A DNA stretch of 64,000 bases from an uncultured Candidatus Bathyarchaeia archaeon (GCA_964636425.1 CAZWRU010000005.1:4982-68981), one strand, 5' to 3'. Positions 32,795-62,152 are shown, numbered from the stretch's first letter. Notes: a model not told the origin generated them from the letters alone. Program-made: numbers and translations.

Positions 32795-33130
32795 TTAGCA
32801 CTCAAATTCGTAGTGAAAACAGGTATCTTTTCCAGTATGACAAACTGGACCTTTCTGCTCTACAACATACAATAAAGCATCAAAATCACAGTCTGCAACG
32901 ACACGTTTTATTTTTTGCGTATGCCCTGAGGTTTCCCCCTTCATCCATAGTTGTTTTCTGCTTCTGCTCCAATAGTGTGCAAAACCTGTACTCAGAGTCT
33001 TTTGTAAGGCTTCTTTATTTGCATAGGCTAGCATAAGCATCTCCTTCGTGTTTGCATCCTGCACTACAACGGGGATGAGGCCGTCCATTTTTTTCCAGTC
33101 CAGATTCTCCACAAGATTCATTTTAGTCAT
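32795..33130 (-). CDS. hisI: phosphoribosyl-AMP cyclohydrolase (monofunctional)
   Basis: 111-aa [29 protein letters not shown], and C...CHTG. Confidence 0.9.
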
Positions 33131-33936: not shown

Positions 33937-34670
33937 TCTCCACTGACTGTTTTGATCGCTTCTGAGAGTGTAAATCTGCCTTCGTAGAGAGCTTTACCCA
34001 CAACAACGCCTTTAACTCCTACCCGCTTAAGTGTAACTAAATCGTTTATCCCACCGATACCACCAGCAGCGATTATATCAACACCAGGTGTTTTGCTAGC
34101 TTCGTTAAGGGTCTCTATGTCTGGTCCTTGTAACGTGCCATCTACCGCTATTGATGTTATGAAGAATGTCTTAATCTTTAAAGGGCGGAATTTATTCATA
34201 GCTTCTTCTATGGTAAACGATGTAGCAACTTGCCAGCCCATCATCATAACCTGTCCCTCTTTATTATCTAAGGCTACTATGACGTGTTCTGGGCCAAACT
34301 TATCTAATATTTGTGTAATCGCTTCGGGATTTGTAAACGCCAAAGCGCCAAAGATTACATGTTCAATTCCCGCTGATAGAAGTTTTTCTGCGGCTTCATA
34401 AGTTCGGATTCCACCACCAACTTGGATTGGTAAAGAAGTAGCTTTTGCGATTTCGGTAATTGTATCCAAATTATCCCCTCTACCGAAAGCTGCGTCCAAG
34501 TCTATTATGTGGATTCTCTTTGCTCCTTCCGATTTCCATTTTAAAGCAACTTCTACTGGCGATCCTAAATGGTCGTAGATTTTAGCGGTATTTGGATCTC
34601 CACGGGTTAATCGAACAACTTTTCCCTTGATCAAATCTATTGCGGGAATAATTTGTATTTCATTTGTCAT
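33933..34670 (-). CDS. hisA: ProFAR isomerase
   Basis: 245-aa [18 protein letters not shown] and VGGGIR. Confidence 0.95.
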
Positions 34671-35272
34671 TTTGTAATCACCCTAGCAAAGTTTTTCAGA
34701 ATTTTTAAACCAATCTCACCTGATTTTTCAGGGTGAAACTGAGTGCCGTAAATATTTTTCTTAGCCACTGATGAAGTGAATGTCTCGCCATACTTGGTTT
34801 CAGTGCATATTATTTGCTTCTCTTCTGGAACTGGGTAAAGAGAGTGCACAAAGTATACATAGGTCTCGTCGTTGATGTCACTAACAAGTTCGTTTTGCTT
34901 AGTAATTTTAATAGAGTTCCAGCCCATGTGCGGCACCTTCACGGGACCAATTAATCTAACGTCTTTGCCTCTAAAAAAGGATAAGCCTTTTCCTGGACCT
35001 TCTTCGCTTGTTTCAAAGAACAATTGTAACCCCAAGCAAATTCCCAGAATGGGTGTACCGTCATTAACTATGTCTATTAGCTGTTCTTTTATTGGTTTTA
35101 GGGCCTCTGCTGCTGCCGAAAAGTTTCCTACCCCGGGTAATGCAATGGCCTCTGCGTTTTTTATTTTTTGGTTGGGCTTTGCTATTATTGCCTCTACTCC
35201 TACCTTCTCAAATGCGACTTTGAGACTTAGTAAGTTACCTACACCATAATCAATTATGTGAATCTGAGGCAT
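34667..35272 (-). CDS. hisH: imidazole glycerol phosphate synthase, glutaminase subunit
   Basis: 201-aa ORF. LPGVGNF, nucleophile GICLGLQ, and FHPEKS. Confidence 0.95.
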   Translation of the reverse strand: MPQIHIIDYGVGNLLSLKVAFEKVGVEAIIAKPNQKIKNAEAIALPGVGNFSAAAEALKPIKEQLIDIVNDGTPILGICLGLQLFFETSEEGPGKGLSFFRGKDVRLIGPVKVPHMGWNSIKITKQNELVSDINDETYVYFVHSLYPVPEEKQIICTETKYGETFTSSVAKKNIYGTQFHPEKSGEIGLKILKNFARVITK

Positions 35273-35847
35273 TAAATAACTCCTTTTGAGCTGGGGATTC
35301 CTTTTCTCCGCGGATCTAATGCTATAGCTTGCTTAAGTGATAAAGCAAGTGCTTTAATTGCTGCTTCGGCTTTGTGGTGATCATTGCCTCCGTATTGAAC
35401 CCAGACGTGGATATTTGCGGATAATGAAATGGCGAGAGTTTCAAAGAAGTGAATTATGTCTTCAGTTGCCATGTCTTCAATCTTTTTGCCTCTAAGCTTC
35501 AGGTCGATTACAGCATAAGGTCGTTTAACCAAGTCTATGGCTGCAAAAGCTACTGCCTCGTCCATGGGTACAACTGCATATCCGAAGCGAATTATTCCTT
35601 CTCTACCCGCTAATGCCTTGCTTAGAGCTTCGCCTAATCCTATAGCTAAATCCTCTATTGAATGGTGTTTAAGATCACCCTTTACTTTTGCAGAAAGATC
35701 AATTAGGCTATGTGTGGCAAAAGAAGTTATTAAATGGTCAAAGAAGGAAATTCCGGTTCCCACCTCGACTTTTCCTTCCCCATCTAAATTTGCCTTTATC
35801 GTAACTTCGGTTTCACGAGTTTTTCTGTATACCTCATCGGTTCTCAA
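35272..35847 (-). CDS. hisB: imidazoleglycerol-phosphate dehydratase
   Basis: 191-aa ORF. RKTRETEV start, HHSIEDLAI, and NDHHKAEA. Confidence 0.95.
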   Translation of the reverse strand: MRTDEVYRKTRETEVTIKANLDGEGKVEVGTGISFFDHLITSFATHSLIDLSAKVKGDLKHHSIEDLAIGLGEALSKALAGREGIIRFGYAVVPMDEAVAFAAIDLVKRPYAVIDLKLRGKKIEDMATEDIIHFFETLAISLSANIHVWVQYGGNDHHKAEAAIKALALSLKQAIALDPRRKGIPSSKGVI

Positions 35848-36965
35848 GATTTTTCCCTCATATATTCTTTCAGAGCTGATAGAAGTTTAGTGTTCATTTC
35901 AGGTAGCCCAACGGTGGTTCGAAGACAATTCTCATAGTTGATAAGTTTTCCTAGCTTCTTAATTACCAAGCCTTTTCTTAAAGCTGCTTCATATACCATT
36001 TCATAGGGCTTTTCAGTGCGGAACAGTACAAAGTTTGCTTTGGAATCAAAGGCTTCAACTCCTGGTATGTTATTTAATTCGTTTATGAGTCTTCCACGTT
36101 CCGCTTTCAATGCAGTCACTGATTCTCGCATCAATCCGATGTTTTCTATCATTTTACTGCCCATACTTAAGGAAACAACATTTACTGGATAAGGCGCTGG
36201 CATTTTATCGATTGCTTTCGCTAATCTTGGATTTGCGACAGCATAACCTAATCTTAGTCCCGCTAAACTAAACGCTTTAGAGAAAGTACGCAGAACAATC
36301 AAGTTTTCGTATTTGTTTATTAACTGAACAACTGAGTAATCCGCATACTCAGCATAAGCCTCGTCAACTAGAACTATCCCTGGGAACTCTTCGATTAACG
36401 CTTCAATTTCCCTCGGCTTCAATTGATTGGCAGTAGGATTGTTAGGTGAGCAAAGATAAAGCAGCTTCGAATCTGGAGTAAATTCTTTTCTCATTGCATC
36501 AATGTCTACTGAGAAGTCATCTTTGAGAGGTATGGTGACAAATTTTGCGCCCTGATATTGGACACAATACTTAAAGATGGTGAATGTGGGTATGAATGTC
36601 ACGGCGGTATTTCCTGCTTCAAGGAAAATACGTATTACTCTCTCCATAACCTCGTCACTAGAGTTGCCGAGGGTTACAGATTCAGGTGTGACCTGAAGGT
36701 ACTCGCCGATTTTCTGTTTAAGTTTGTTTTCTTCTTCTTGGGGATAAATTCTAAAGTCGCATTCTTCTGCAACTTCTTTGAGTAGCGGAATTACTTTTTC
36801 TCTGGGGATGTAAAGATTCTCATTATAGTTAAGTTTCACAATATCATTTGGAGATAAATCGTATTCTTTGGCAATCGTTTCGTTTGTTTTTTCTGCATTG
36901 TAGCTTTCAGAACTTTGAAGTTTAGAAAGTTTTTTATCTAGCCAATTCTTACAGGTAGCGTTCAC
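35844..36965 (-). CDS. hisC: histidinol-phosphate aminotransferase
   Basis: 373-aa ORF. NPTANQL, VDEAY, and PLP-lysine region TFSKAFSLAGLRLGY. Confidence 0.9.
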   Translation of the reverse strand: MNATCKNWLDKKLSKLQSSESYNAEKTNETIAKEYDLSPNDIVKLNYNENLYIPREKVIPLLKEVAEECDFRIYPQEEENKLKQKIGEYLQVTPESVTLGNSSDEVMERVIRIFLEAGNTAVTFIPTFTIFKYCVQYQGAKFVTIPLKDDFSVDIDAMRKEFTPDSKLLYLCSPNNPTANQLKPREIEALIEEFPGIVLVDEAYAEYADYSVVQLINKYENLIVLRTFSKAFSLAGLRLGYAVANPRLAKAIDKMPAPYPVNVVSLSMGSKMIENIGLMRESVTALKAERGRLINELNNIPGVEAFDSKANFVLFRTEKPYEMVYEAALRKGLVIKKLGKLINYENCLRTTVGLPEMNTKLLSALKEYMREKS

Positions 36966-38269
36966 TTTTCAAACCTCGCTTCTACTGCTTTATAGTGATT
37001 AGGTAATCTTTCAGCAGTTGTTAAGATTTCTATGCTGTCTTTTACCCTTAGAAGTCCCTCTTTTGTGCTTTTAACTATGTTGACTCTTCTGGTGAAATCA
37101 AGAACCGATAGACCTGAAAAAGTATATCCGAAACCTCCAGTAGGCAATACATGATTCGTTCCGCTTCCATAATCGCTTAAGGCAACGGGGCTATATGGTC
37201 CAAGCAAGATTACACCTGCGGAAGTAATTTTTTCGGCTATTTTCATCGAATCTTTAGTCATTATCTCTAAATGTTCAGATGCAAAAACATTCGCCAAATT
37301 AACTAGTTCATCGTTGTTCTCGCAAACAATTACGAATCCATAATCTGACAATGATTGCTCGATAATTTCTTTTCTTTCCGCTGAACTAGTCATCTGCTGA
37401 AGATAGTCTTGAACTTTTTTAGCTATCTCCTCTGAGGTAGTTATCAGTCCCGCAACACTATCGATTCCGTGCTCAGCTTGACTGATCATATCCGCGGCAA
37501 TAAGCTTAGCCTCTGCAGTATCATCTGCGAGAATTAATACTTCGCTTGGTCCAGCCGGCATATCAATGGCTACGTCTTGCGAAACCATAATTTTGGCCGC
37601 TGTCACATATTTGCTTCCTGGACCGACTATCTTCCTTACAGGTTTGATGGTTTCAGTACCATAGGCTAACGCGGCTATAGCTTGGACTCCGCCGACTTTA
37701 TAGATTTCATTAACCTTGCAGATATCAGCCGCCACCAAAATTAATGGATTAATTGTGCCTTGAGCTGTAGGTGGTGAACAGACTACAATTCTAGATACGC
37801 CAGCTACTTTTGCAGGTGTAGCGGTCATAACAACTGTACTGGGGTATGCTGCTAATCCCCCTGGTACGTAACATCCCACGCTTTCAATAGGCCGTAACGT
37901 AGTTTTAACGCAAATGCCTTCTTTAGTTGTTACGAGGGGTTGTTGTGTTAACGTTAATTCATCAATTGTATTGAGCTTTTTCTGCATTAATTTCAGGGCT
38001 TCAATTTGTTCTTTGCTAACTGATTTGTAGGCCTCTTTGATTTCTTCAGCGCTTACTCTTAGATCCTTAGCGGTAAGCACAGTTTTATCAAATTTCTCTG
38101 TGAACTCTAATAAAGCTCTGTCGCCTTTTGCTTTAACTGCTTCTACTACTTCTTTGACTGTTTTTTCGAGAGCTGAGTTGTCTTTTTCATTTAGTGATTT
38201 TATTCTTTTAAACCAATCTGGAGGGAGAGTTGCTGTTGTCCAGATTTTTATTGTGAATTGTTTGGACAT
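36962..38269 (-). CDS. hisD: histidinol dehydrogenase
   Basis: 435-aa [23 protein letters not shown], and SEHLE. Confidence 0.95.
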
Positions 38270-39249
38270 CTGTTTTCTTTTCTCCGTTCTATCTCATCTA
38301 ACGCCAGTACCTGCCTTGGTTCATACACTACTAAGCCTTGTGCGATTTTGCGTATTTTGGGTAAGAGCTCTATTAGGCAGTTTTTCTCAATTACAGTGTT
38401 AACGCTGACCCAAGAATCGTCTGCTAAAGGAGAAATCGTTGGGTTTTTTAGAGCAGGTAACTCGGTGAGCAGTCTCTGAAGATTGTTCTTCTTAACGTTA
38501 ACGAATATGTGGATTCTTTTTGATCCGTCAACGACACCTTTCAGGAGTGCAACTATGTCATAGATTTTCTCACGTTTTTCTAAATCTTCAAGAGCTTTCT
38601 TGTTGGCGATAAGTATGGCCGATGATACCATGACCGTATCTATTATGCGCAGGTTATTTGCCTCAATAGTGGTACCTGTTTCTGTTACATCCATAATACA
38701 ATCGCTGTTTTCTGGCGGTTTTGCTTCTGTTGCACCAAACGATAAGAAAATTTTAGCTCTTGGATTATCGCCCTTCCTCCACCATGGCGTCACAATCATT
38801 GGCTCTTTATCTCCGAAACGTTTCTTGTACTCAGGTGTGTTCTTGAGGTATTCTGAAGCTATGTTAAGGTATTCTGTGCTGACCCGGAAGTTCTTTTCCT
38901 GACTCCAGATTTCTTCCATGAAGCCTCCTAAGGTTATGTTTTCCTTGAGACTTTTTGGAACTGCAATTACAAGTCTAATTTTACCGTATTCCAGGTTCTG
39001 CAAAATCTCTACATCAGCGCGGTTTTCCCTAACCCAATCCTCACCGGTTATGCCGAGATCCTGCAGACCTTCTGAAACAAAAACGGGAATTTCTTGGGGT
39101 CGCAGAACCTTCATCTCTATCTGTGGGTCATTAATGCTTGGTCGGTATGTTCGTTCTGTTAAGCCTATTTTAAACCCTGATTTTGAGAAGAATTCTGCTG
39201 TTGCTTTTTCTAAAGAGCCTTTTGGTATAGCAAATTTTAATTTATCCAT
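38248..39249 (-). CDS. hisG: ATP phosphoribosyltransferase (long form with C-terminal regulatory domain)
   Basis: LKFAIPKGSLE start and DVTETGTT motif. The track start is GTG 39258. ATG at 39247-39249 sits 5 nt after a GGTGAT SD-like motif and is preferred. Confidence 0.9.
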   Translation of the reverse strand: MDKLKFAIPKGSLEKATAEFFSKSGFKIGLTERTYRPSINDPQIEMKVLRPQEIPVFVSEGLQDLGITGEDWVRENRADVEILQNLEYGKIRLVIAVPKSLKENITLGGFMEEIWSQEKNFRVSTEYLNIASEYLKNTPEYKKRFGDKEPMIVTPWWRKGDNPRAKIFLSFGATEAKPPENSDCIMDVTETGTTIEANNLRIIDTVMVSSAILIANKKALEDLEKREKIYDIVALLKGVVDGSKRIHIFVNVKKNNLQRLLTELPALKNPTISPLADDSWVSVNTVIEKNCLIELLPKIRKIAQGLVVYEPRQVLALDEIERRKENRCPNNSQ

Positions 39250-39523
39250 TTCAATCACCTATTTTTATCATAGTAGAATTTTTCAGTCTATTCGCTGGTT
39301 CTTTTTTACTTTTGAGAAAATCTAATTGTTGAGAGAATATGCGTACGATAGAATAAGTTTTCGTGGTTAAACGAACAGTTTTTCGATTGCACTTATTGAA
39401 GATGAATGCAATCGCCTTTGGTGAACGCAATCCCTCATCTTTCTCACTAAGCGCACAATTTAGTGCGTCTTTCTTATAAAGTTATCTTGGGTAATTATCG
39501 ATTTAAAGCTTAACGAAGATTTC

Positions 39524-50437: not shown

Positions 50438-50591
50438 GTCTCTTTCTATACGTTGATTGCTGCTTTTCTACTGCCTCTTCAAAATCTCTTATACCCCTTT
50501 TTTGGTTCTACTATACCGCTTATTCCTTATTTTTATTCATGGCTTTTTAACTGAAAATGTCCTAAAAGCTCATAAAGCACCCTTTGTAGTA

Positions 50592-52109
50592 ATGCCTTCT
50601 GCAGGGGTATCTCAGATAGGTTGCGGTGTCTTTGGAGCAATAAACTTCAAAAGTGAACCTGTATTTTCATTCGTATACTGGGGTCTACGCGCTCAAAATC
50701 ATAGAGGACACCAATCATATGGTTTTTTAACTTTCCATGAAGACGAATTTCACACTCAAAAAAATCTTGATTTGGTGCCTAAGATTAAGACCAGTGCTCT
50801 ACATGATTGGTTCGTTCAATTACCTGGGAGTGTAGGTATAGCTAATGTTAGATATACCACATCGGGAAAATGTGATGATGCATCAATTGTTAAAGGCACC
50901 CAACCCGTTACGGCGCAAGCAAACGGGATAAAACTAGCAGTCTCATTCAACGGAAATATCGTTAACACCCTCAAGCTTAAACAAGAAATAACTCAACACT
51001 TACCCAACTTTTCTTGCATCTGTGACTCAGATTTGGTCTGTAATAAATTGCTAATTGAACTCAAAGACGGTAAAGATCTTGCCTCAGCGGTTAAAACTGT
51101 CATGCTGAGCTTAGACGGAGCCTTTTCTGTAATCGGAATCACTGGAAACGGAGATTTTTTCGCCTTCAAAGATCCTCATGGAATTAAACCATTATGCGCT
51201 GGGCATAGTCCTGATAACTCAATATTCGCTTTTTCCTCAGAAACTGTCAGCTTGGACATAAATGGATTCGAGCGTGACTTTGAACTAGAAGCAGGCGAAT
51301 TAGTGACTGTTACAAAAGAGGGTTTTAAACGTCAACAACTTATCGAAAATCCACGCAAGGCCTTTTGTGCTTTTGAATGCGCATATTTCGCTCGACCAGA
51401 TTCTATATTCAACGGCAAATATGTTTACGAAATGCGCGAAGAATTTGGTCGTAATATCGTTAAAGAATTTTCAGATATAGCAAAGGATGCAGACATAATC
51501 ATGTCGGTGCCCGAAACCGGCGATGACTCTGCTATGGGCGTACATGAAGCCTCGGGGTTACGTTGGGAACGCGCCAGCCGTCGTCACCGTTATGTAACTG
51601 AAAGGGCTTTCATTTTACTAGACGACGATCGTTACTCAACTATAGATAGGAAAGTTAACATCCTCGGTTCTAAAGTAGAAGGAAAGCGAGTTATAATAAC
51701 GGAAGACAGCATCGTACGAGGCGATACCACCAAGGTTATAATAGAGAAGTTACGGAAGTCGGGAGCTAAAAAAATACATATGTTTGTCACCTTCCCCAGA
51801 ATAATTGCTCCTTGCTTCTATGGAATAGACATGAGTAGTTATGGACAACTTATCGGCTCAACTCATGATGAAAAAGGAATTGCGAAAATAATAGGGGCAG
51901 ATACCGTATGCTATCAATCGATAAAGAATATGGTGAAAGCAATAGGTTGTACCCAAGATGAACTTTGTCTTGGCTGTATAACGGGCAAGTATCCTACCCC
52001 TGTTGCTCAAAAAATTGCTGACGAAATGAAGAAAAAATTCCTTAATGGCTATAAGGAAAATGGCAGAATTTACGAAACAGGCGATTCCTCTCAAAATATT
52101 CAATGGTAA
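50592..52109 (+). CDS. purF: amidophosphoribosyltransferase
   Basis: Ntn nucleophile context IGCGVFGA after a short propeptide. PRPP loop VIITEDSIVRGDT. The track ORF from 50457 adds a hydrophobic artefactual leader. Confidence 0.9.
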   Translation: MPSAGVSQIGCGVFGAINFKSEPVFSFVYWGLRAQNHRGHQSYGFLTFHEDEFHTQKNLDLVPKIKTSALHDWFVQLPGSVGIANVRYTTSGKCDDASIVKGTQPVTAQANGIKLAVSFNGNIVNTLKLKQEITQHLPNFSCICDSDLVCNKLLIELKDGKDLASAVKTVMLSLDGAFSVIGITGNGDFFAFKDPHGIKPLCAGHSPDNSIFAFSSETVSLDINGFERDFELEAGELVTVTKEGFKRQQLIENPRKAFCAFECAYFARPDSIFNGKYVYEMREEFGRNIVKEFSDIAKDADIIMSVPETGDDSAMGVHEASGLRWERASRRHRYVTERAFILLDDDRYSTIDRKVNILGSKVEGKRVIITEDSIVRGDTTKVIIEKLRKSGAKKIHMFVTFPRIIAPCFYGIDMSSYGQLIGSTHDEKGIAKIIGADTVCYQSIKNMVKAIGCTQDELCLGCITGKYPTPVAQKIADEMKKKFLNGYKENGRIYETGDSSQNIQW

Positions 52110-52155
52110 AACCATTTAAGCATTATAGTTATTTTCTAACCTAGGTTGTTTGCTA

Positions 52156-53565
52156 ATGGATAGGACAGGTATACTAGTTGTTTCATATGGCGCACGAGAA
52201 GCTGCTATTGTAGATGTTTTAAGCCGAAGCTCAAACCATAAGGTTAAACTTTTCATAGCTGATAAACAAAGAAACCCCTTCAACGCTGAGAAAGCCACTA
52301 AGCACGTCATAATACCCGATTTAAACGTTGAGCAAATCTGCAAATTTGCTCAAACCAACAAAGATGAAATTGATTTCGTTATCCTAGGCTCAGAAAAACC
52401 AATAATCGATGGAATTCGAGATTTGATCGAAAAAAGCACTGGTATACCCGTTATTTGTCCTAAGCAAAAGTATGCAATAGAAGCTAGTAAAGTTGAACAA
52501 CGACTACTTTTCGAAGAAATTGCCCCCGAAGCTAATCCCCGGTTTAAGGTTTTTGATTCCAAAGATTATTCGAGCGTTGATGATGTTAAAAAAGGGGTTT
52601 ATAAATGGCTTGACGAGTTGAACAACCAAGTTGCTGTAAAACCTGATAAGCCAACTGCAGGTAAAGGCGTGGGAGTTTGGGGCGATCACTTTAGTACCCG
52701 TGAACAACTTTTTGAGCACTTTTTATCAAATTACCAATATAGCTCTGTAATCATTGAGGAGAAAGTAAAAGGAGAAGAATCCAGCTCTATGGCTTTCTGC
52801 GATGGCAAGCATCTGATTGCTCTTCCAGATACCCGCGATTACAAACGTGCCTTTGACGATGACAAAGGACCAAATACGGGGGGCATGGGATCCTACAAGG
52901 ACACTGAAGATTTTCTTCCATTTATGACTTCGAAGGATCGTGAAGCCGAAGTTACCATAACTCAAAAAATTTTCCAAGGATGGAGCAAAAAAATAAATGA
53001 TGATACAGCACTTCGTGGTGTGCCTTTGTACTTGGCTTTCATGCACACGAGTGGGGGACCCAAGATTCTTGAAATCAATAGTCGCCCTGGTGATCCGGAA
53101 AGTATTAACATCTTCCCAATTATCAAGGATGACTTTGTTGATATTTGCTATAAGATGATTGATGGTAACCTTAACCGCGTCGAGGTTGAGACAGTAGCAA
53201 CGGTTCTAACCTATAAAGTTCCACCTACCTATGGGGGGTATGCCGAAGTTTACCCCAATTCAATTAACCTTTCACAAATCCAAACTCCTGTTAATCTTGA
53301 TGCAGCATATGCTTTAACCCATAAATATGGAGATAAAATACGCATATATCCTGGTTCAATGGAGCTTAGAAACGATAGTAATTATGCTCTTAAATCAAGA
53401 GTTGTGGGTGTTCTGGGTATAGGTGACGATATAGAAGCCGCACGTTTAATCAGTCAAGAGGGAGCAAAAGTAATTACAGGTGGAGGCCTTTGGAATCGAA
53501 CTGATATTGCCTCAAAGCAGCATATAGCAAAAAGTATGCAGCATATGAAGCAATTGAGGGCATAA
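52156..53565 (+). CDS. purD: phosphoribosylamine--glycine ligase
   Basis: ATP-grasp enzyme with GPNTGGMGSY and LEINSRPGDPE. The track start is TTG 52150. ATG 52156 lies 9 nt after AGGT. Confidence 0.9.
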   Translation: MDRTGILVVSYGAREAAIVDVLSRSSNHKVKLFIADKQRNPFNAEKATKHVIIPDLNVEQICKFAQTNKDEIDFVILGSEKPIIDGIRDLIEKSTGIPVICPKQKYAIEASKVEQRLLFEEIAPEANPRFKVFDSKDYSSVDDVKKGVYKWLDELNNQVAVKPDKPTAGKGVGVWGDHFSTREQLFEHFLSNYQYSSVIIEEKVKGEESSSMAFCDGKHLIALPDTRDYKRAFDDDKGPNTGGMGSYKDTEDFLPFMTSKDREAEVTITQKIFQGWSKKINDDTALRGVPLYLAFMHTSGGPKILEINSRPGDPESINIFPIIKDDFVDICYKMIDGNLNRVEVETVATVLTYKVPPTYGGYAEVYPNSINLSQIQTPVNLDAAYALTHKYGDKIRIYPGSMELRNDSNYALKSRVVGVLGIGDDIEAARLISQEGAKVITGGGLWNRTDIASKQHIAKSMQHMKQLRA

Positions 53566-53568
53566 ATT

Positions 53569-54651
53569 TTGACGAAAATTTTTATTTCTGACTGTGAGGG
53601 TCCAATAAGTAAAAACGATAATGCATTCGAAATAGTTGCTCATTTTATTCCTAACGGGGACAAACTTTTCACTCTCATAAGTAAATATGACGATGTCCTT
53701 GTGGATGTTATTAAAAAGAAAGATTATTTCGCAGGTGGCACACTCAAACTAGTTTTACCTTTTCTTAAAGCCTATAATGTTACGGACAAGCAAATGCAGG
53801 AATTCTCAAGACAAAATATCCTTCTCGTAACTGACATAAAATATACCCTTTCTCATATTAGAGACTTAACTGATGCCTTCATTGTAAGCACAAGTTATGA
53901 GCACTACATCAAAGCTCTCTGCGAAGTCCTCGAGTTTCCATTTGAAAACACATATTGTACTAGACTCAAACTGGATGACTACACAATCACTTTATCTGAA
54001 TCACAGAGACTGAAAGAACTTGCCCAAGAAATAGCCGCTATGCCTATGATAACTATTCCCGCCGATGCAAAGTCGCTTTCTGATTTTTCGGTCGTCGACC
54101 AGGATACTATTAATCGTCTTGACGAAATCTTCTGGACCGAAATTTCAAGCATGAGTTGCGGAAAAATCTTTTCTGATATAGTAACTATTGGTGGTGAACA
54201 GAAAGCCGAAGCTATTCAATCAATAACTGCAAAACTGCAAATTTCTGTCAAAGAAGTCATGTATGTTGGTGATAGCATTACTGATGTTGAAGCTTTTCAG
54301 CTCGTCAGAAAAAATAACGGTTTAACTGTTTCTTTTAACGGCAACAATTATGCAGTTAAGAATGCAGAAATTGCAGTGCTTTCCGAGAACAGTCTCATTA
54401 CGGCGATGATTGCAGATGTATTTTGTACACACGGTAAAGAGTCGGCATTACAAATTGTTAAAAACTGGAATCGGCGATTCCTAAAACGAAGTATGGTGAA
54501 TCCATTTTTATTAGGTCAACTTTTCGCGTTATACCCCAAGGATTTGCCGAAAGTTCAAATACCTGCGGCATCGAATATGGCAATTATAGTGAAAGAGAGT
54601 ATCGAGTTTAGGAAAAAAGTAAGAGGACAAGCTATAGGGAGATTAGGATAA
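53569..54651 (+). CDS. HAD-like protein of the type annotated EhaR in methanogens (function unknown)
   Basis: 360-aa ORF (TTG start, 3 nt after the purD stop). N-terminal [17 protein letters not shown] (DxE in place of the HAD DxD) and a C-terminal [15 protein letters not shown] motif-IV-like region. The name is from my recollection of the family. Confidence 0.55.
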
Positions 54652-54653
54652 AA

Positions 54654-55571
54654 ATGGTTGTAAACTCTAAAATCGAAATTGTAGATACTTATGCTGAAGC
54701 GTTTGAAGGTATTTTCTGTAGAGCTATTATAACTGCAGATGATAAACAGACGTTGCGTAGCGCGGCTTACGATGTCACAGCTACGCCCTCAGCAGTTATC
54801 GGAAGAATTGAAGGTGGCATAGAAAAATGGTTAAGCGAAAAAGAAACGCCTGACAAACGTAAAGGCGCTCTTGTCCAATGGTGGATGGGCGTAAAAGCTA
54901 ACAAACCATTATCAGATCAACTTACAAAGTTTGAAGCAGAACTATCCTTCCGAATACGCCAAGATGTACTCGTTAAACCCTTCACCGCGATATTTGATGC
55001 TCTGTCTAATCCTGAAGGCAAATTCGATATGATGGAACGTGTCGGTCACTGCGGCGACGGTTATGAATGGGTCGAAAAACGCTACGGCCGAGAAATAATA
55101 GTTGTACCTCTTATGACCCCAGATTTCATTATCGAACGCTACTTAGGCTACAGTCATGGTATAAGCGGAGCAAACTTTTGGATTTTATGTAAAACTAAAG
55201 AAGCTGTTCTTGAGGCAGGTCAAAAAGCTCTTGATGCAGTTCAAACTGTGCCTGGGGCAATCACAACCTTTGACATATGCTCTGCTGGATCTAAACCTGA
55301 AACTAAATATCCTCTCATTGGGCCAACTACTAATCATGAATGGTGCCCTTCTTTAAAACGTGCACTGGGCAAAGACTCAAAGGTGCCTGAAGGAGTAGGC
55401 TACATTCCTGAGCTAGTGATTAGTGCGATTAATATGGATGCGGCAAAAGCTGCCATGAAAGCAGGTATTGAAGCGGCGATGAGCGTCAAAGACGTAGTTT
55501 CAATATCCGCAGGAAACTATGATGGTAAATTGGGAAAATACAAAATATTTCTACGCGAGCTGTTTCCATGA
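54654..55571 (+). CDS. formylmethanofuran:tetrahydromethanopterin formyltransferase (Ftr) family paralogue
   Basis: 305-aa ORF. Aligns by eye end-to-end with Ftr: [49 protein letters not shown]. Confidence 0.8.
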
Positions 55572-56482
55572 AACGCTTCGGCGTCGTAGGCTTCGGCGCG
55601 CTCAATGTAGATAAACTCTTCAAAGTCGACCGGTTGGCTCATGCTGAAGAAGAAAGTTTTGTAATCAGCGAAGAAGAGATTTGCGGTGGTTCAGCAGCAA
55701 ACACAATAGTTGGTTTAGCACGTTTAGGGGGTGCCGTCGGATTTATCGGAAAAATCGCTATGGACCGCGAAGGTGAACTGCATCTGGCAGACTTTAGAAA
55801 AGAACATGTCGACACTAACGGTATCATTCAATCCCGGGAAGGTCACAGCGGCAACGTCATGGGCTTCGTAGACACAAAAGGCGCTCGTGCGTTATACATC
55901 CAATCTGGAATCAACGATACCATAACCCTCCAAGAAGTAAACTTGCAGTATATTTCTCAAGCACAGTTTCTGCACCTATCTTCGTTTGTCGGTGAACTAT
56001 CTTTTGAGACCCAAAAGAAAATCGTCCAAACCTTACCTGCCAATGTTAAGGTAAGCTTTGATCCTGGTTTTCTTTATATACGAAAAGGTCTATCTCAGCT
56101 TGAATCCATAATAAAAAAGAGCCATGTTATGCTGCCCAATAGCATTGAATTAGAACTATTAACTGGCAAACAAGAGCCCGCGGAAGGCGCGGCTTTTCTC
56201 ATAAATAAAGGCGTTAAAATAGTGGCTGTAAAGATGGGTGCTGACGGCTGTTATGTTACTAATGGCAAAGAATCGCATAGTGTTGAACCATTTAAAGTTA
56301 AAGTCGTCGATACAACAGGTGCTGGTGATGCATTCTGTGCTGGTTTCCTCTATGGGTTATTAAATAAAAAGAACCTAAAAGAGTGCGGGAGAATAGGGAA
56401 CTTTGTCGGTTCAAGGTGCGTTATGAAAATGGGGGCACGGCCTGGTCTGCCGTACGCTAAAGATTTAGAGCTTCTTGGTTAA
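55568..56482 (+). CDS. PfkB-family (ribokinase-like) carbohydrate/nucleoside kinase
   Basis: 304-aa ORF. GGSAANT and [13 protein letters not shown] motifs. ATGA overlap with the Ftr-like gene. Confidence 0.85.
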
Positions 56483-57295
56483 CTTTTCAAGTAGGCTGTC
56501 AAAAATCAGTTTGCCGTCCCCATACTGGGACATATTTTGCTGGCTGGTCCAGTTGGGTTGTTGCCACCAATAATATGCGCGTTCGGGGTGAGGCATTAAG
56601 CCAAATATGTTTCCCTCCTCGTTGCATATACCTGCTATGTCATGGAAGCTGCCGTTCGGGTTTGTCGGGTATTGCCCTTGAGCGTAATTGCCATTTTGGT
56701 CGCAATAACGAAAGACTACCATGTCGTTTTCGTAGAGTTTTTCAAGCAGCTTTTCCTCTTTTTCCTTGGGAAAGAGAAATCGGCCTTCACCGTGTGCAAT
56801 GGGCATTTGTAGGACTTTGCCTTTGGGGATTTTGCTTGTAAATGCGCATTTTCCTCTGTTGTCGTTTCTCAGATAAATCCAGCGGCATTTGTATCCCTGA
56901 CTGTTTGAAGCCAAAGCTGCTTGAGGATATCCGCTGTGGCCGTCAAAACCGGGAAGTAATCCTTCTTCGACTAGAACTTGGAAGCCGTTGCATATCCCCA
57001 GTACAGATCGATTATCATCGATAAAGGCACGTAGTTCTTTGCCGAGTTTAGCTGAAATTAGTCGTGCTAGAATCACTCCTGACCGAACATAATCGCCAAA
57101 TGAGAAACCACCTGGGAAGACCAATACATGATAGTCAAGAAGATTCTTTTGTTTGACAACTTCATTTAGGTGGAGAATATGTGTTTTTAGTCCTAACTCC
57201 TGAAAAGCGCGTGCAGTTTCAGCGTCACAATTTGTTCCGCCTACCCGCATAACCAGTACACGTACATCTTTTAGCTTCATTTTTTTACGCTCCAC
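56465..57295 (-). CDS. purQ: FGAM synthase, glutaminase subunit
   Basis: 276-aa ORF. Nucleophile GICNGFQVL, and MPHPER. Confidence 0.9.
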   Translation of the reverse strand: MERKKMKLKDVRVLVMRVGGTNCDAETARAFQELGLKTHILHLNEVVKQKNLLDYHVLVFPGGFSFGDYVRSGVILARLISAKLGKELRAFIDDNRSVLGICNGFQVLVEEGLLPGFDGHSGYPQAALASNSQGYKCRWIYLRNDNRGKCAFTSKIPKGKVLQMPIAHGEGRFLFPKEKEEKLLEKLYENDMVVFRYCDQNGNYAQGQYPTNPNGSFHDIAGICNEEGNIFGLMPHPERAYYWWQQPNWTSQQNMSQYGDGKLIFDSLLEKLTKKL

Positions 57296-59666
57296 GGCTT
57301 AAGGTTAGTTTCCAGCTTGTACGTAAATCTACAACCGGCGCATTCACCACTACCCCTGCTCCTTTTAGCCCTTTGATGATTAAACTGGGATTTTTGGTGA
57401 CTTTGCCGATTTCAGCGTAGCTTTTACCCTTCATTATCCTCTCGAAGATTTCTTTGTCTTTTTTGGCTACTTCTACGAGGAAACGGCTGTTTGATTCTGA
57501 GAATAACGCGAAATCGTTTCGTTCAACATCTTTTACTGGTATCTTCTTTAAATCAAGTTCCATGCCTAAGTTGCTGGCTAAAGCCATTTCTGCTGCCGCA
57601 ACGCCTAAACCGCCTTCAGAGAGGTCATGAGCGGCTCTTATCACGCCTTCACCTATTACTTTAGTGAATGCATAGTAGGTTTTTCTAGCTTTCCGCGCGT
57701 TTAGTTTTGGAACAGAATTGCCCAGGTATCCTTTTAGTTTGTAATACTCTGAGCCTCCTAATTCATTGTAAGTGTCGCCAATGATGTAAATGAGATTTCC
57801 AGGTGCTTTGGTGTCCATTGATACTGCTGAGCGTATGTCGGGAACTATGCCGACAGCTGTAATTAGCAGCGTCGGAGTTACTGGGCCTAAAGGTGATTCA
57901 TTATAGAGACTGTCTTTTCCTGAAATGAATGGCGTCTTAAAAGTAGTAGCAATATCGTAACAGGCTTCACAAGCTTTAACCAATGAACCGAGTCGTTCTG
58001 GTTTTTCTGGATTACCCCATACGAAGTTATCCAATATGGCTATTCGTCTTCCACCTACAGCGAGGTTGTTTCTTATGGCTTCGTCTATAGCGGAGGCTGC
58101 CATCCAATAAGCGTCGATTTTTCCGTAATTAGGATTCATGCCGCAAGAGATAGCTATGCCCTTCCATGAATTGTCTAACGGCTTTAAAATTGCAGCGTCA
58201 TTTGGTCCTGCATATTCTCCGTGGAACGGCTTAAGGGTCGTGTTACCTTTAACTTCATGGTCATAAGTACGAACAACGCTTTCTTTGCTTGCAATGTTCG
58301 GAGCGGAAAGAAGTTGAAGTAACATTTCAGTAAGGTTTTTCGGTTCGGCAAATTTGGGCTCTTCAATTTTTTGGGCTTCAATTTTCGCGGTTTTAGTTAC
58401 TTCGGTTGTTGTAAATAGAAACTGCATATCTAATTCTGCTACTATTACGCCTTCATAGCATAATCTTAGAATCCTCTCTTTGGTTAGTTGTCCTATAGCA
58501 TTAGCTTCAACATCTTCGGTTTCAAAAATCTCTAAAACCTTCTGTAGGTTCTCAGGTGGAACAGTTAAAAACATCCTCTCTTGAGATTCAGAAACGTAAA
58601 TCTCCCAGGGCGCAAGTCCGGTATATTTGAGAGGTACCTTGTCTAAATTTACTGTGACTCCGCAATCATATCTGTCAGCTGTTTCACCTACTGCCGATGA
58701 AAGGCCTCCCCCTCCTATGTCCGTTGTTGCTGAACCCAGTTCAAGGTCACGTATTTTCATCATTGCGCGGGTGACCTTTTCTTCTTCGATTGGATCGGCG
58801 ATTTGGACTGCTGGTCGGCTTACTTCTTCGGATTTCTCAGTGAGCTCTGCTGAAGCGAAGGTGACGCCGTGAATGCCATCGCGTCCTGTTTTTCCGCCTG
58901 CTAAAACGATATAGTGCCCCGCTTTTGCTTCTTTTTTGTATTTCTTTAGGGGTAGAAGTCCAATGCAGCCGCAATATACAACGACGTTACCTGTGTAGGA
59001 TTCGTCAAAGTATATTGCGCCGTTTACTGTTGGGATTCCCATGTTGTTGCCGTATGTGGCGATACCTGCAGTGACACCCATGTAAATGTATTTGGGGTGT
59101 TTCATTCCAGCTGGCAACTTGGTGTAATCAAAATTTAGCGGACCAAACCCTAGTACGTCTGTGCAGGCGATAGGATCTGCCCAGACACCTAATATGTCGC
59201 GTATGACTCCTCCTACACCTGTTGCTGCGCCGCCGAAGGGTTCAACGGCGGAGGGGTGATTGTGGGTTTCAACTTTGGCTGCTATTGCATAGCCCTTATC
59301 GAAGTCTATAATGCCAGCGTTATCTTCAAAGACGCTGATGCACCATTTGGAGTTGATTTCTTTAGTGGCTTTTGATATGTAGGTTTTAAAGAGGCTGTTA
59401 ACTTCTTTGCCGTCTTCCATTAGGATTTTTCCTTTGAAGGTTTTATGGCAGCAGTGTTCGCTCCAAGTTTGCCCTAAAATCTGTAATTCAACGTCTGTAG
59501 GGTTGCGGTTTTGGGTCTTGAAATATTTTTGAATTTGCTTCATTTCCGCAAGGTTCAATCCTAACCCTAGCTCATCGCTGATTTTCAGCAACTGTTTATC
59601 CGTGGCAATTGCCAAGTTGGCTTGATGCATAGTGAAAGATGTGTTAGAGTGGATGTAGAGGCTCAT
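57285..59666 (-). CDS. purL: FGAM synthase subunit II
   Basis: 793-aa ORF. ETHNHPSAVEPFGGAATGVGGVIRD and the duplicated PurM-like architecture. Confidence 0.95.
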   Translation of the reverse strand: MSLYIHSNTSFTMHQANLAIATDKQLLKISDELGLGLNLAEMKQIQKYFKTQNRNPTDVELQILGQTWSEHCCHKTFKGKILMEDGKEVNSLFKTYISKATKEINSKWCISVFEDNAGIIDFDKGYAIAAKVETHNHPSAVEPFGGAATGVGGVIRDILGVWADPIACTDVLGFGPLNFDYTKLPAGMKHPKYIYMGVTAGIATYGNNMGIPTVNGAIYFDESYTGNVVVYCGCIGLLPLKKYKKEAKAGHYIVLAGGKTGRDGIHGVTFASAELTEKSEEVSRPAVQIADPIEEEKVTRAMMKIRDLELGSATTDIGGGGLSSAVGETADRYDCGVTVNLDKVPLKYTGLAPWEIYVSESQERMFLTVPPENLQKVLEIFETEDVEANAIGQLTKERILRLCYEGVIVAELDMQFLFTTTEVTKTAKIEAQKIEEPKFAEPKNLTEMLLQLLSAPNIASKESVVRTYDHEVKGNTTLKPFHGEYAGPNDAAILKPLDNSWKGIAISCGMNPNYGKIDAYWMAASAIDEAIRNNLAVGGRRIAILDNFVWGNPEKPERLGSLVKACEACYDIATTFKTPFISGKDSLYNESPLGPVTPTLLITAVGIVPDIRSAVSMDTKAPGNLIYIIGDTYNELGGSEYYKLKGYLGNSVPKLNARKARKTYYAFTKVIGEGVIRAAHDLSEGGLGVAAAEMALASNLGMELDLKKIPVKDVERNDFALFSESNSRFLVEVAKKDKEIFERIMKGKSYAEIGKVTKNPSLIIKGLKGAGVVVNAPVVDLRTSWKLTLSRGA

Positions 59667-59914
59667 TTTTGCTCCTCAACGCTTATGCTATAATTGTCTT
59701 TAGTTGGATTTGCGAGAAGCCGTTTAGCCATCTCTTCAGCTTTCGCTTTTGCCTCTTGGATACTTGACGCTTCAATTTGAACATCGTAACTTTTGCTGAC
59801 GTTTACTGCGCTTACTTTGTAGCCGAGTTCTTTTAAAAGACGTTGAGTGGTGTTACCTTCAGGGTCAGTATGACCAGGTTTTAGGCTGACTTCAATTTTA
59901 GCGCGGTATATCAT
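59663..59914 (-). CDS. purS: FGAM synthase subunit PurS
   Basis: 83-aa ORF. VSLKPGHTDPEG... Overlaps the purL start by 4 nt. Confidence 0.85.
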   Translation of the reverse strand: MIYRAKIEVSLKPGHTDPEGNTTQRLLKELGYKVSAVNVSKSYDVQIEASSIQEAKAKAEEMAKRLLANPTKDNYSISVEEQK

Positions 59915-59970: not shown

Positions 59971-61050
59971 CTATGCTAATTTTAACTTTTTATTTTGATG
60001 TTTGATTGATACTTGAGGCATGCTTGTGATTTTTCCGATTTGTTCTGGCTCAGCTCCACTTTTTTCTAAGATATCTAGTGTTTTGTCTGTGTCTGTTTTA
60101 TCTACGATTATTCCAAAGCCCCAACCCATGTTAAAAGTCGTGAACATCTCTTCATCTGTTATTGTGTAGCCCAACTCAGTGGCTGTTTTTTGCATTAACT
60201 CAAAGATGGGTTGAGGCTTAAAGTTGTCAAATTGGAAGCCTATACCTTTGGAAAATCTGGTGAGGTTGTTGAATTTTGTATAAGCGTCTCCTGTTATGTG
60301 GACTGCCGCCTTAATTTTGACTGCTTTGGCTACTTTGAGGAATTCTTTGACGTAGATTTTAGTCGGTTTTAACATTTCGCTTACGATATTGCAGTCTAGT
60401 TCTTTTGGGGTATCTTTAGGGTTATATTTTCCACCCCATTCTTTAAGCATGATTTTGCGAGCGAGAGTTATACCGTTGCTATGTAATCCGCTGCTGGGTA
60501 AGCCAATTATGGGGTCATCGGTTTTGATGTCGCATCCTGTGATTATATGTTCTTTATCAACTTGACCTATTGCGGCGACTATCATGTCAAAACCTGCACC
60601 TTCAGATATACCGTTTATAATTTCAGCTACATCGCCGATTTCACCACTAACCACGGGGCACTCAGATTGTTTTGCACCTTCTACTATGCCCGCGAGCCAT
60701 TCTTTGACAAGTTGAGGATTGCTGGCTTGCGCATGAATATTATCTGAGATAGCCAATGGTGTGGCGCCCGAGCGAATTACATCGTTAACTGCCATGGCGA
60801 CAGCGTCTACACCGATGGTGTCATATTTTCCTGATAATTCTGCAAGGAGAACTTTTGTTCCGACACCTTCGATAGTTAAGTCTAGGTAGGAATCTTTTGA
60901 GAATTGGAAGATATTACTATATGGTAGGTGTATGACGGGTCCAAAGCGGCTATACTGGTAGGTCTCTTTTAGCATATCCAGTGCTTTTTTAGATTCGTGA
61001 CGCTGTTTTCGGTTAACACCTGCATCAGTATAAGTGAAGTTTTTTGGCAC
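59971..61050 (-). CDS. purM: AIR synthetase (FGAM cyclo-ligase)
   Basis: 359-aa ORF. EGVGTKV, VNDVIRSGA, and HITGD. Confidence 0.9.
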   Translation of the reverse strand: MPKNFTYTDAGVNRKQRHESKKALDMLKETYQYSRFGPVIHLPYSNIFQFSKDSYLDLTIEGVGTKVLLAELSGKYDTIGVDAVAMAVNDVIRSGATPLAISDNIHAQASNPQLVKEWLAGIVEGAKQSECPVVSGEIGDVAEIINGISEGAGFDMIVAAIGQVDKEHIITGCDIKTDDPIIGLPSSGLHSNGITLARKIMLKEWGGKYNPKDTPKELDCNIVSEMLKPTKIYVKEFLKVAKAVKIKAAVHITGDAYTKFNNLTRFSKGIGFQFDNFKPQPIFELMQKTATELGYTITDEEMFTTFNMGWGFGIIVDKTDTDKTLDILEKSGAEPEQIGKITSMPQVSIKHQNKKLKLA

Positions 61051-61270: not shown

Positions 61271-62152
61271 ATGACAAGGTTTTTGTGTTTAGATGCCGAT
61301 ATGCGATTGATTATTGTGAAAGTACCTAAGTATCATATTTACATCGAATACGAAGATTCTGCCAAGTCGGGCATCCGTTTTAATGTTCCTCAGGAAGAAC
61401 TCATCCGTGCATTTGTTACGCCTTTTACAGCGGGGCAGCCTTTTTGGTTCATGGGTAAATTGCTCAATTCCCTAAAAACGGTAAAAGTAGTTCTCTTTTG
61501 GTCATACGAAAATGCGGATAAACTCACCTTGCCTGACCAGCAATCTCTTGTGATCTGCAAAGACAAAAAATATCTAATAGAAAATATTCTCAAAGGCAAA
61601 GTAAAAGGAGTATACCTCTGCACTGAAAAATTCCTGCCCCCAGCCCAGAAAACTGAAGAATCTTCAAGTCCAGGTGTAGCTTCAGCAACGAGTATTCGAA
61701 GGCGTATTTTTGTGATTTCGGGTTCTGATGAAGAAATGAAGCAGGTAACTTCTGTGGCATTAACAAAGCTCGGTTTAGCACCTGTAATTATGCGTGAACA
61801 ACCTCGTCAAGGTCGACGAATCGTCGAGCACTTTGAGGACTACTCTGATGTAGGCTTCGCAGTGATTCTATTATCCCCTGATGACTATGTGTTCTCCAAG
61901 GACGATTCGCCCTCAAAACGAACACTAAAACCAAAACAAGACTTAATTTTCACATTTGGATTCATCTTGGGTAAGCTCGACAAAAGCAAAGTTCTTGTCT
62001 TCTACAAAGAATCTGAAAATTTTGAGGTGCCTACCGACTACGATGGTATTCAATTTACGGCTTTTGATGATCGTGATAGCTGGAAGCTAGCTTTGATACG
62101 AGAATTAAAAACCGCAGGCTACGCCATAGACCAGAACGCTATTCTTCAATAA
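61271..62152 (+). CDS. protein with an unknown N-terminal domain and a C-terminal TIR-like domain (Cap12/Pycsar-effector type)
   Basis: 293-aa ORF. The C-terminal ~150 aa (RIFVISGSDEEMKQVTSVALTKLGLAPVIMREQPRQGRRIVEHFEDYSDVGFAVILLSPDDY...IFTFGFILGKL...EVPTDYDGIQF...WKLALIRELKTAGY) matches the bacterial TIR-like nucleotide-binding family as I recall it. Confidence 0.7.
   Translation: MTRFLCLDADMRLIIVKVPKYHIYIEYEDSAKSGIRFNVPQEELIRAFVTPFTAGQPFWFMGKLLNSLKTVKVVLFWSYENADKLTLPDQQSLVICKDKKYLIENILKGKVKGVYLCTEKFLPPAQKTEESSSPGVASATSIRRRIFVISGSDEEMKQVTSVALTKLGLAPVIMREQPRQGRRIVEHFEDYSDVGFAVILLSPDDYVFSKDDSPSKRTLKPKQDLIFTFGFILGKLDKSKVLVFYKESENFEVPTDYDGIQFTAFDDRDSWKLALIRELKTAGYAIDQNAILQ

Follow-up and report, generated by a model that had tools for sequence, protein, structure and literature searches.

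Three adjoining genes embedded in a purine biosynthesis cluster were analyzed in a 64,000-nucleotide (64-kb) stretch of DNA, here called the window, from an uncultured Candidatus Bathyarchaeia archaeon (GCA_964636425.1, CAZWRU010000005.1:4982-68981). The origin from Bathyarchaeia was supported by the closest protein matches, which were 70 to 96% identical, and the identical locus was present on several metagenome contigs. The trio lies on the plus strand and encodes a HAD-IB-like protein of 360 residues (53569..54651), which is an EhaR orthologue and a homologue of AF1437; a paralogue of formylmethanofuran:tetrahydromethanopterin (H4MPT) formyltransferase (Ftr) of the EhaS type, with 305 residues and referred to below as Ftr2 (54654..55571); and a PfkB-family kinase of 304 residues, the EhaT orthologue (55568..56482). 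These assignments were made from the Pfam and NCBIfam HAD matches, PDB entry 1Y8A and an AlphaFold2 (AF2) model for the first protein, from the Pfam domains FTR and FTR_C for the second, and from Pfam PfkB (PF00294, 1.9e-57) for the third.

The trio is situated between purF-purD upstream and a convergent purQ-purL-purS-purM group downstream. On the plus strand, purF (50592..52109; amidophosphoribosyltransferase, step 1 of purine synthesis) was identified by NCBIfam TIGR01134 (3e-91) and Pfam GATase_6/7 and was called as a 505-residue protein in the identical contig L001, while purD (52150..53565; glycinamide ribonucleotide [GAR] synthetase, step 2) matched Pfam GARS_N, GARS_A, and GARS_C and TIGR00877 (4e-73). 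On the minus strand, the three subunits of formylglycinamidine ribonucleotide (FGAM) synthase (step 4) are encoded by purQ (glutaminase subunit, 56465..57295; Pfam GATase_5, 1.4e-66), purL (large subunit, 57285..59666; FGAR-AT_linker, AIRS, and AIRS_C in the gene-call Pfam annotation), and purS (small subunit, 59663..59914; Pfam PurS, 1.7e-21), followed by purM (aminoimidazole ribonucleotide synthetase, step 5, 59971..61050; gene-call Pfam AIRS and AIRS_C). Step 3, the formylation of GAR, was the sole one of steps 1 to 5 for which the cluster held no gene. Neither PurN (Formyl_trans_N) nor a PurT-type ATP-grasp protein was detected by Pfam among the 30 further open reading frames (ORFs) of the window, in agreement with an earlier interpretation of this DNA (the sequence-only reading), and purN and purT were also not found in any 20-kb locus examined.

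The junctions were read directly from the sequence. The HAD-like gene begins at TTG, 3 nt ("att") after the TAA stop codon of purD; its own TAA is separated by "aa" from the ATG of Ftr2 (a 2-nt gap); and the Ftr2 and PfkB genes share a 4-nt ATGA overlap in the context ccATGAaa. The gene layout, the three spacings and the flanking pur genes described by the sequence-only reading were borne out by the ORFs, the junctions and the Pfam and NCBIfam matches, and the peptides that it had quoted (51 protein letters, and DTTGAGDAF) were found in the translations. At the convergence with purQ, the 3' ends of the two genes overlap by 18 nt (56465-56482), leaving no room for an intergenic terminator, and a simple terminator scan gave nothing over the shuffled expectation. 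For PurF, the likely start according to the gene callers is MPSAGVSQIG/C, with a 10-residue propeptide ahead of the catalytic Cys. The TTG start at position 50457 given by the ORF finder was rejected as an over-extension that added 45 hydrophobic residues over 50457-50591.

Conservation of the trio was assessed in a scan of one genome per GTDB species with an eight-sequence Ftr2 alignment as the query. This yielded 80 loci, which were annotated by phmmer with the window's own proteins; 49 were Bathyarchaeia-type species loci, and the fractions given here take those with enough flank. The HAD-like gene was directly upstream of Ftr2 in 41/44, purD preceded the HAD-like gene in 41/44, and the PfkB gene was directly downstream of Ftr2 in 46/46, with the convergent purQLSM group next in most of these loci. 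In one locus (L071), purL, purQ, purM, purD, and the HAD-like, Ftr2, and PfkB genes follow one another in this order on the same strand. The order purD-HAD-like-Ftr2-PfkB was encountered again in several further Ftr2 subclades when a metagenome scan was seeded from a different subclade, and two metagenome loci had the order Ftr2-HAD-like-PfkB. A chance arrangement was rejected, since the gene order is identical in dozens of independently assembled genomes. The association of the trio with purine genes across genomes, which the sequence-only reading had proposed as a check, was therefore found to be strong.

Some loci differed from this pattern. In L012 (GCA_964486205.1, 3175-6575), an orphan Ftr2-like protein (P0125) is encoded after a radical-SAM/HHH gene and divergently from purB (adenylosuccinate lyase). 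This neighborhood, in an unrelated lineage, is a second and independent link to purine synthesis, and a search for homologues of P0125 returned mainly Bathyarchaeia, together with Asgard and purB contexts. A Bathyarchaeia locus (L007, GCA_038992015.1, 8976-9971) has an extra 331-residue gene between the HAD-like and Ftr2 genes, with a subthreshold GH43-like match (8.6e-8); this gene is not in the window. In a metagenome-assembled genome (MAG) of Methanophagales, the ANME-1 group of anaerobic methanotrophic archaea (L065, 317-2375), and in a related MAG (L066, 3160-6528), Ftr2 is downstream of an archaeal fructose-bisphosphate aldolase/phosphatase gene (PF01950, ~1e-178), and in the latter a divergent D-x-E-G-P HAD is encoded 3 kb upstream of Ftr2.

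The same three genes in the same order were found in Methanobrevibacter, Methanosphaera, and Methanobacterium. The HAD-like, Ftr2, and PfkB genes, corresponding to EhaR, EhaS, and EhaT, were collinear in loci L058, L063, L064, L068, L070, L072, L074-L078, L081, and L083-L090 with strong phmmer scores, the window proteins scoring 206 to 307 bits (HAD-like) and 216 to 316 bits (PfkB) against their methanogen partners. Homologues of the HAD-like protein carry the JGI name "energy-converting hydrogenase A subunit R." The trio comes right after two polyferredoxin genes (Pfam Fer4, phmmer) in at least 15 Methanobrevibacter-type loci. This is the EhaP/Q-EhaR/S/T arrangement of Kaster et al. (2011), who described EhaS as Ftr-like and EhaT as ribokinase-like and reported EhaR/S/T to be cotranscribed with ehaA-R in Methanothermobacter. 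The occurrence of this trio at the end of eha operons, stated in the sequence-only reading, was thereby verified. The window trio is orthologous to EhaR/S/T, with the Ftr2 proteins 55 to 61% identical, and differs in following purD within a purine cluster, whereas that of Methanobrevibacter follows two polyferredoxins. The Methanosphaera trio stands alone, and no Fer4 polyferredoxin or hydrogenase genes were detected within 10 kb of the window trio. The trio is a self-contained module that occurs in two genomic settings rather than a set of hydrogenase subunits.

In Methanobrevibacter filiformis (L085, 8032-9066), a NADAR protein (PF08719, 4e-53) and a 166-residue ORF lie between EhaR and EhaS. 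NADAR/YbiA enzymes cleave ribosylamine-type intermediates, which would make such a protein an intriguing neighbor of a module whose proposed substrate is a ribosylamine derivative. Three taxon labels were implausible and probably reflect misbinning: "Bacteroidaceae bacterium" for a Methanobrevibacter-like eha tail (L074), "Nitrosotalea sp." for a 2.2-kb Ftr2 contig (L082), and "Acidobacteriota bacterium" for an EhaR homologue (P0491).

The middle gene had been called a full-length Ftr homologue, and this held: PF01913 (FTR, 1.5e-43, residues 5 to 153) and PF02741 (FTR_C, 2.1e-53, residues 156 to 303) were both matched end to end, and the two-lobe fold family covers the full length, with end-to-end alignments to 1M5S, 1M5H, and 1FTR. 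In direct comparison, Ftr2 was 40% identical to the solved Ftr enzymes of M. barkeri and A. fulgidus (1M5S and 1M5H); 1FTR and the bacterial FhcD (6S6Y) were also sequence matches. Identities were higher to the second Ftr of Methanobacterium (61%), Methanosphaera (57%), and M. filiformis (55%) and to proteins of Hydrothermarchaeota (Ca. Pyrohabitans, 58%), Methanophagales (ANME-1, 57%), Promethearchaeota (56%), and Ca. Alkanophaga (55%). In neighbor-joining trees, the Ftr2-type proteins formed one clade split from canonical Ftr/FhcD. These were distance trees without support values, and only the deep split was relied upon. The scan and the trees placed the Ftr2 proteins of Methanobacteriales, Methanophagales, Alkanophaga, and Hydrothermarchaeota within the clade of the window protein. 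Consistent with this, the window protein scored 218 bits against the Ftr/FhcD equivalog model TIGR03119, under its cut-off of 292.6, and 333 bits against the looser NCBIfam subfamily model PRK02114, over its cut-off of 297. On the combined basis of clade, identity, and TIGR03119 score, it is not an orthologue of the biochemically characterized Ftr. Grouping with genuine Ftr had been named beforehand as an outcome that would speak against a new function; by trees and identities the protein does not group with the characterized enzymes.

That the window protein is the Ftr of the Wood-Ljungdahl pathway was considered and rejected. In addition to the separate clade and the 40% identity, it is accompanied by pur genes and not by fwd, mch, or mtd. 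Bathyarchaeum tardum has two Ftr proteins according to the supplementary table of its description, of which WGM88604 is numbered near fwdA (WGM88596), mtd (WGM88599), and mch (WGM88600), the other being WGM89568. The Ftr2 locus that our scan found in B. tardum (L047, CP070820) is a purine cluster, and by elimination it holds the second copy rather than the Wood-Ljungdahl one. Only Ftr1 versions, that is, canonical Ftr, have been characterized, according to Chadwick et al. (2022, PMC9012536), and a canonical and a second Ftr coexist in Methanothermobacter (Kaster et al. 2011) and in ANME archaea (PMC9012536).

Residue conservation was compared between 163 Ftr2-type and 28 Ftr1-type sequences. 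E253 of Ftr2, the proposed catalytic Glu, aligns with position 246 of the M. barkeri enzyme and is kept in at least 85 to 90% of both families; the buried catalytic Glu is presumably Glu245 in M. kandleri Ftr. Besides this residue, 30 other core positions were conserved in both types. Seven positions were switched from Ftr to Ftr2 (T>V107, F>C133, A>G189, S>A211, G>E216, A>P224, and S>T225), and 12 were conserved in the Ftr2 type only. This pattern would fit an active formyltransferase with a remodeled substrate site. The full-length two-lobe fold and the oxyanion-stabilizing Glu are shared with Ftr (1FTR/2FHJ, 1M5H, and 1M5S) and FhcD (6S6Y), and formyl transfer between amines is presumably kept. 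Ftr2 differs from these enzymes in its clade, in its fixed residue switches, and in its company, which is pur genes or an eha tail as opposed to fwd/mch/mtd. Rosetta-stone fusions with HAD, PfkB, or Pur domains were sought among longer Ftr-domain proteins, and none was informative, the extensions being of the FhcA/FhcC type (Amidohydro_3, GXGXG) or unexplained.

The third gene was confirmed as a ribokinase-like PfkB kinase by its Pfam match and the DTTGAGDAF motif. The protein has the PfkB fold and the ribose-binding N-x-D motif, and its motifs GALNVD, GGSAAN, and DTTGAGD are conserved across phyla. Its closest PDB matches were ribokinases (~1e-30), and with ribokinase (RbsK) it shares N-x-D, the GG..N motif, and the DTTGAGD anion hole with the catalytic Asp. 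It nevertheless differs in scoring far under the ribokinase equivalog cut-off (TIGR02152, 170 bits against 299.65; PRK11142, 120 bits against 341) and in having Ser and Phe where Lys43 and Glu143 of E. coli ribokinase align. The missing Lys43/Glu143 equivalents, together with the low equivalog score, hint that the substrate may be a 1-substituted riboside rather than free ribose.

The first gene had been described as a HAD-like protein with DxE instead of DxD. Its Pfam matches (Hydrolase_3, HAD, and Hydrolase) were weak, at 3e-6 to 2e-4, and NCBIfam TIGR01488 was matched at 37.6, under the cut-off of 45. The fold assignment was supported by PDB entry 1Y8A (AF1437; E = 1.4e-26) and by an AF2 model with a mean confidence (pLDDT) of 93.4 and template modeling (TM) scores of 0.79/0.91 to 1Y8A, the next folds being SerB, ThrH, and MtnX. 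Motif I is D8-C-E10-G-P, with Glu for the second Asp, motif II is STSY, motif III is K212, and motif IV is GDSITD; D-x-E-G-P, STSY, the Lys, and GDSI.D were invariant across Bathyarchaeia, Methanobacteriales, and A. fulgidus. The core with motifs I to IV and the helical C1 cap are those of HAD subfamily IB. AF1437 of Archaeoglobus fulgidus, a "hypothetical protein" from structural genomics, is a homologue sharing D-x-E-G-P, STSY, and GDSI.D. It differs in that the conserved C-terminal ...VRG..IG.LG tail of the HAD-like protein is absent from the aligned part, and it is not known to adjoin the second Ftr of A. fulgidus. Were the three proteins of the trio to form a complex, this tail would be a candidate docking peptide. 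SerB, ThrH, and MtnX, the nearest characterized folds, also belong to HAD-IB, and all four HAD motifs are present in the window protein, which is distinguished by the motif I Glu, a larger cap, an extra C-terminal domain of ~100 residues, and an identity of only 10 to 15%. Motif I also has the form D-x-E in enolase-phosphatase E1 of the methionine salvage pathway; a Glu here is thus no obstacle to phosphatase chemistry. We regard the protein as a putative phosphatase or phosphotransferase with a small phospho-metabolite as its substrate.

The absence of a step 3 gene from the cluster matches a gap described in the literature. GAR formyltransferase was not identified in two Archaeoglobi, four Methanobacteria (misprinted once as Methanomicrobiales), and M. 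kandleri, whose pathways were otherwise intact, and M. thermautotrophicus is a purine prototroph (Brown et al. 2011, PMC3261824). ANME-1 archaea are without PurN and PurT, and a divergent and uncharacterized "Ftr2" was noted in ANME-1, ANME-2a/b, Archaeoglobales, M. kandleri, and M. marburgensis (Chadwick et al. 2022, PMC9012536). The distribution of Ftr2 coincides with the GAR formyltransferase gap for every lineage lacking both known enzymes. The link between the two was made by neither of these studies. Searches of the open-access literature, which would overlook papers behind a subscription, found no other paper that makes it and no functional assignment of EhaS, EhaT, Ftr2, or AF1437/MTH403. 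The B. tardum authors reported "multiple deficiencies in purine biosynthesis," which is only a suggestive hint. The gene set itself is already known, as EhaR/S/T and as "Ftr2"; its link to a purine operon is the new clue.

We therefore hypothesized that the module formylates GAR from a formyl group bound to methanofuran (MFR) or H4MPT, a reading to which we assign a probability of roughly 0.55. It develops the functional idea of the sequence-only reading, which fits both the published GAR gap (PMC3261824) and the occurrence of Ftr2 in ANME-1 archaea that have neither PurN nor PurT (PMC9012536). Gene content, junctions, paralogy, clade membership, catalytic motifs, and synteny are established by the sequences, whereas GAR as the acceptor, the nature of the donor, and the phosphatase and kinase roles of the other two proteins are inferred. 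Ftr2 would be a retargeted Ftr paralogue that moves the formyl group of formyl-MFR or N5-formyl-H4MPT onto the primary amine of GAR, and the ATP-dependent PurLQS would draw the resulting formylglycinamide ribonucleotide (FGAR) onward. The -CH2-NH2 group of GAR is analogous to the aminomethyl group of methanofuran, so that Ftr chemistry, with its buried protonated Glu and tetrahedral intermediate, would carry over directly. Exchange between these carriers is close to thermoneutral (for transfer of formyl from H4MPT onto the furan amine, +4.4 kJ/mol; Fhc paper). The proposed net reaction (GAR to FGAR) and place in the pathway are those of PurN (folate dependent) and PurT (formate/ATP dependent). 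The trio is distinguished from both by its lack of homology, with no Formyl_trans_N or ATP-grasp homology detected by Pfam in its three proteins, and by a proposed donor that is MFR- or H4MPT-bound formyl rather than formyl-folate or formate. As such, the module is the best candidate for the purine enzyme that has been unaccounted for in several groups of archaea since 2011.

The HAD-like enzyme and the ribokinase-like kinase would be obligate partners of Ftr2 in this reaction. The gene order HAD-Ftr2-kinase suggests a sequence of dephosphorylation, formylation, and rephosphorylation, and as a tentative elaboration, which we consider doubtful, a three-enzyme "riboside bypass" was formulated. 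GAR would be dephosphorylated by the HAD-like protein, the riboside formylated by Ftr2, and the product rephosphorylated to FGAR by the kinase with ATP. The ATP of the kinase would make a near-thermoneutral amide exchange irreversible, and if this step is real, the ATP cost would equal that of PurT. The route from riboflavin to flavin mononucleotide, in which a HAD phosphatase is followed by a kinase, has a parallel logic.

The proposed donor would also account for the second genomic setting. Eha is regarded as a ferredoxin-reducing hydrogenase of chiefly anabolic function, able to supply the synthesis of formyl-MFR, and it would replace the formyl-methanofuran drained by purine synthesis; this would plausibly explain why a gene set that withdraws formyl for biosynthesis is cotranscribed with eha. 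Isotope data are of relevance here as well. Purine C2 comes from free formate via PurP. Purine C8 was derived from acetate C2 in M. stadtmanae and not in M. smithii, a difference called inconsistent by Brown et al. (PMC3261824). We infer that these data would be consistent if C8 came from a carrier-bound one-carbon (C1) pool (H4MPT/MFR) rather than from free formate, that pool being serine derived in the methanol-reducing Methanosphaera and CO2 derived in Methanobrevibacter. A gene for an F420-0:gamma-glutamyl ligase-like protein (PF01996, 2e-17) was observed elsewhere in the window (10968-11819, plus strand); it suggests methanogen-type deazaflavin cofactors and bears on the presence of MFR and H4MPT.

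Several observations weigh against the assignment of the module to GAR formylation. Many Ftr2 genes are solitary with uninformative neighbors: a recurrent partner of 65 stand-alone Ftr2 genes was sought by neighbor clustering and none was found, and Pfam searches of single neighbors gave unrelated housekeeping genes. In a Promethearchaeota genome (L009, GCA_975958455.1, 9274-10888), the partner of an Ftr2 that is 56% identical to the window protein is a HAD of another kind, with the canonical DxD and 235 residues, and no kinase or pur genes were detected near this Asgard gene. Ftr2-like proteins also occur in an Aenigmarchaeota MAG, a setting that may lack both C1 carriers and the de novo synthesis of purines. 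A simple transformylase needs neither a phosphatase nor a kinase, and the strict conservation of both indicates that part of the mechanism is not understood. From the literature, ANME-2a/2b carry both PurN and Ftr2, so that the anticorrelation is imperfect (PMC9012536), and formyl-H4MPT, as noted by Brown et al. (PMC3261824), is not regarded as competent to donate its formyl group.

The alternative that fared best, although unlikely, is that the trio makes, repairs, or recycles a cofactor or ribosylated metabolite, such as in a late methanopterin or methanofuran step or in ribosylamine salvage, its linkage to pur and eha genes being regulatory. A phosphatase and a ribose-type kinase are typical of cofactor and salvage routes, and the many Ftr2 genes away from pur genes would be accommodated, as would the occasional insertion of ribosyl-processing genes (NADAR in M. 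filiformis and the weak GH43-like match in L007). Late steps of H4MPT and MFR synthesis are moreover incompletely assigned (Kaster et al.). Such a role would not account for the purB neighborhood in L012 or for the finding that more than 40 species, and several subclades, have the trio inserted between purD and purQLSM. No cofactor biosynthesis genes recurred when the neighbors of stand-alone Ftr2 genes were clustered, and the documented GAR formyltransferase gap would be left unfilled.

It was judged improbable that Ftr2 is an ordinary formyl-MFR:H4MPT isoenzyme for anabolic C1 flux, placed in the purine cluster for coregulation only. The full-length Ftr fold with its retained catalytic Glu, the passing of the PRK02114 cut-off (333 versus 297 bits), and the annotation as Ftr in every database are as this explanation would predict, but the distinct clade and the fixed residue switches are not, and canonical Ftr coexists in Methanothermobacter, ANME, and B. 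tardum. The obligate HAD and kinase partners would be unexplained, and the gap at step 3 would stay, as no known purine enzyme takes formyl-H4MPT (PMC3261824).

Formylation of 5-aminoimidazole-4-carboxamide ribonucleotide (AICAR, step 9) by the module, either instead of GAR or in addition to it, was an alternative already raised in the sequence-only reading and would be compatible with the variability of this step in archaea (PurH1 or PurP; PMC3261824) and with the several purine gaps reported by the B. tardum authors. This is hardly probable, since the trio-bearing Methanobacteriales already have PurP of the characterized cluster Ia, leaving GAR as the only unassigned formylation, the trio sits between steps 2 and 4-5, and by our chemical reasoning the aromatic amine of AICAR resembles the MFR amine far less than the amine of GAR does. 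A structural or accessory role of EhaR/S/T within the Eha hydrogenase, which Kaster et al. (2011) read from the cotranscription with ehaA-R and which the position directly after the eha polyferredoxins in the Methanobrevibacter-type loci might suggest, was dismissed as extremely improbable in view of the Bathyarchaeia trio in a purine cluster with no eha genes nearby, the lone Methanosphaera trio, and the complete soluble-enzyme catalytic motifs kept by all three proteins. The remaining probability falls to something else.

Since 2011, a GAR formyltransferase has been explicitly recorded as lacking for Methanobacteriales, Archaeoglobi, and Methanopyrus, with ANME-1 added later, although at least Methanothermobacter makes its own purines. 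EhaR/S/T have been without a function since the eha operon was described, and the purine context in Bathyarchaeia is the clue that ties this gene set to the pathway hole. If formylation of GAR by the module is correct, it would be a third, nonhomologous solution for this step and the first biosynthetic use of MFR- or H4MPT-bound formyl outside the C1 pathway, and it would connect energy metabolism to nucleotide synthesis in a concrete way. Owing to the purine-operon context in Bathyarchaeia, the hypothesis can be put to a direct test using three soluble proteins. Annotation of the "second Ftr" as an enzyme of the Wood-Ljungdahl pathway or of methanogenesis is routine, and this inflates C1-pathway calls in Bathyarchaeia, Asgard, and other MAGs.

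Other features of the window were noted. Three ORFs on the minus strand, at 27028-28263 (411 residues), 28401-29315 (304 residues), and 1569-2315 (248 residues), gave no Pfam match at 1e-5. A histidine operon occupies 33127-39258 (minus strand) and includes hisG (38248-39258), hisD, a class I/II aminotransferase gene (hisC-like), hisB (imidazoleglycerol-phosphate dehydratase), and a hisH-like glutamine amidotransferase gene; two ORFs at 33127-34670 could be hisA/hisF. Just past purM, at 61271-62152 (plus strand), is a gene for a 293-residue protein whose C-terminal half matches the CAP12/Pycsar-effector TIR domain (PF10137, 3e-22). This protein may be a defense-type effector, and a TrmB-type regulator was called beside its gene in the identical contig.

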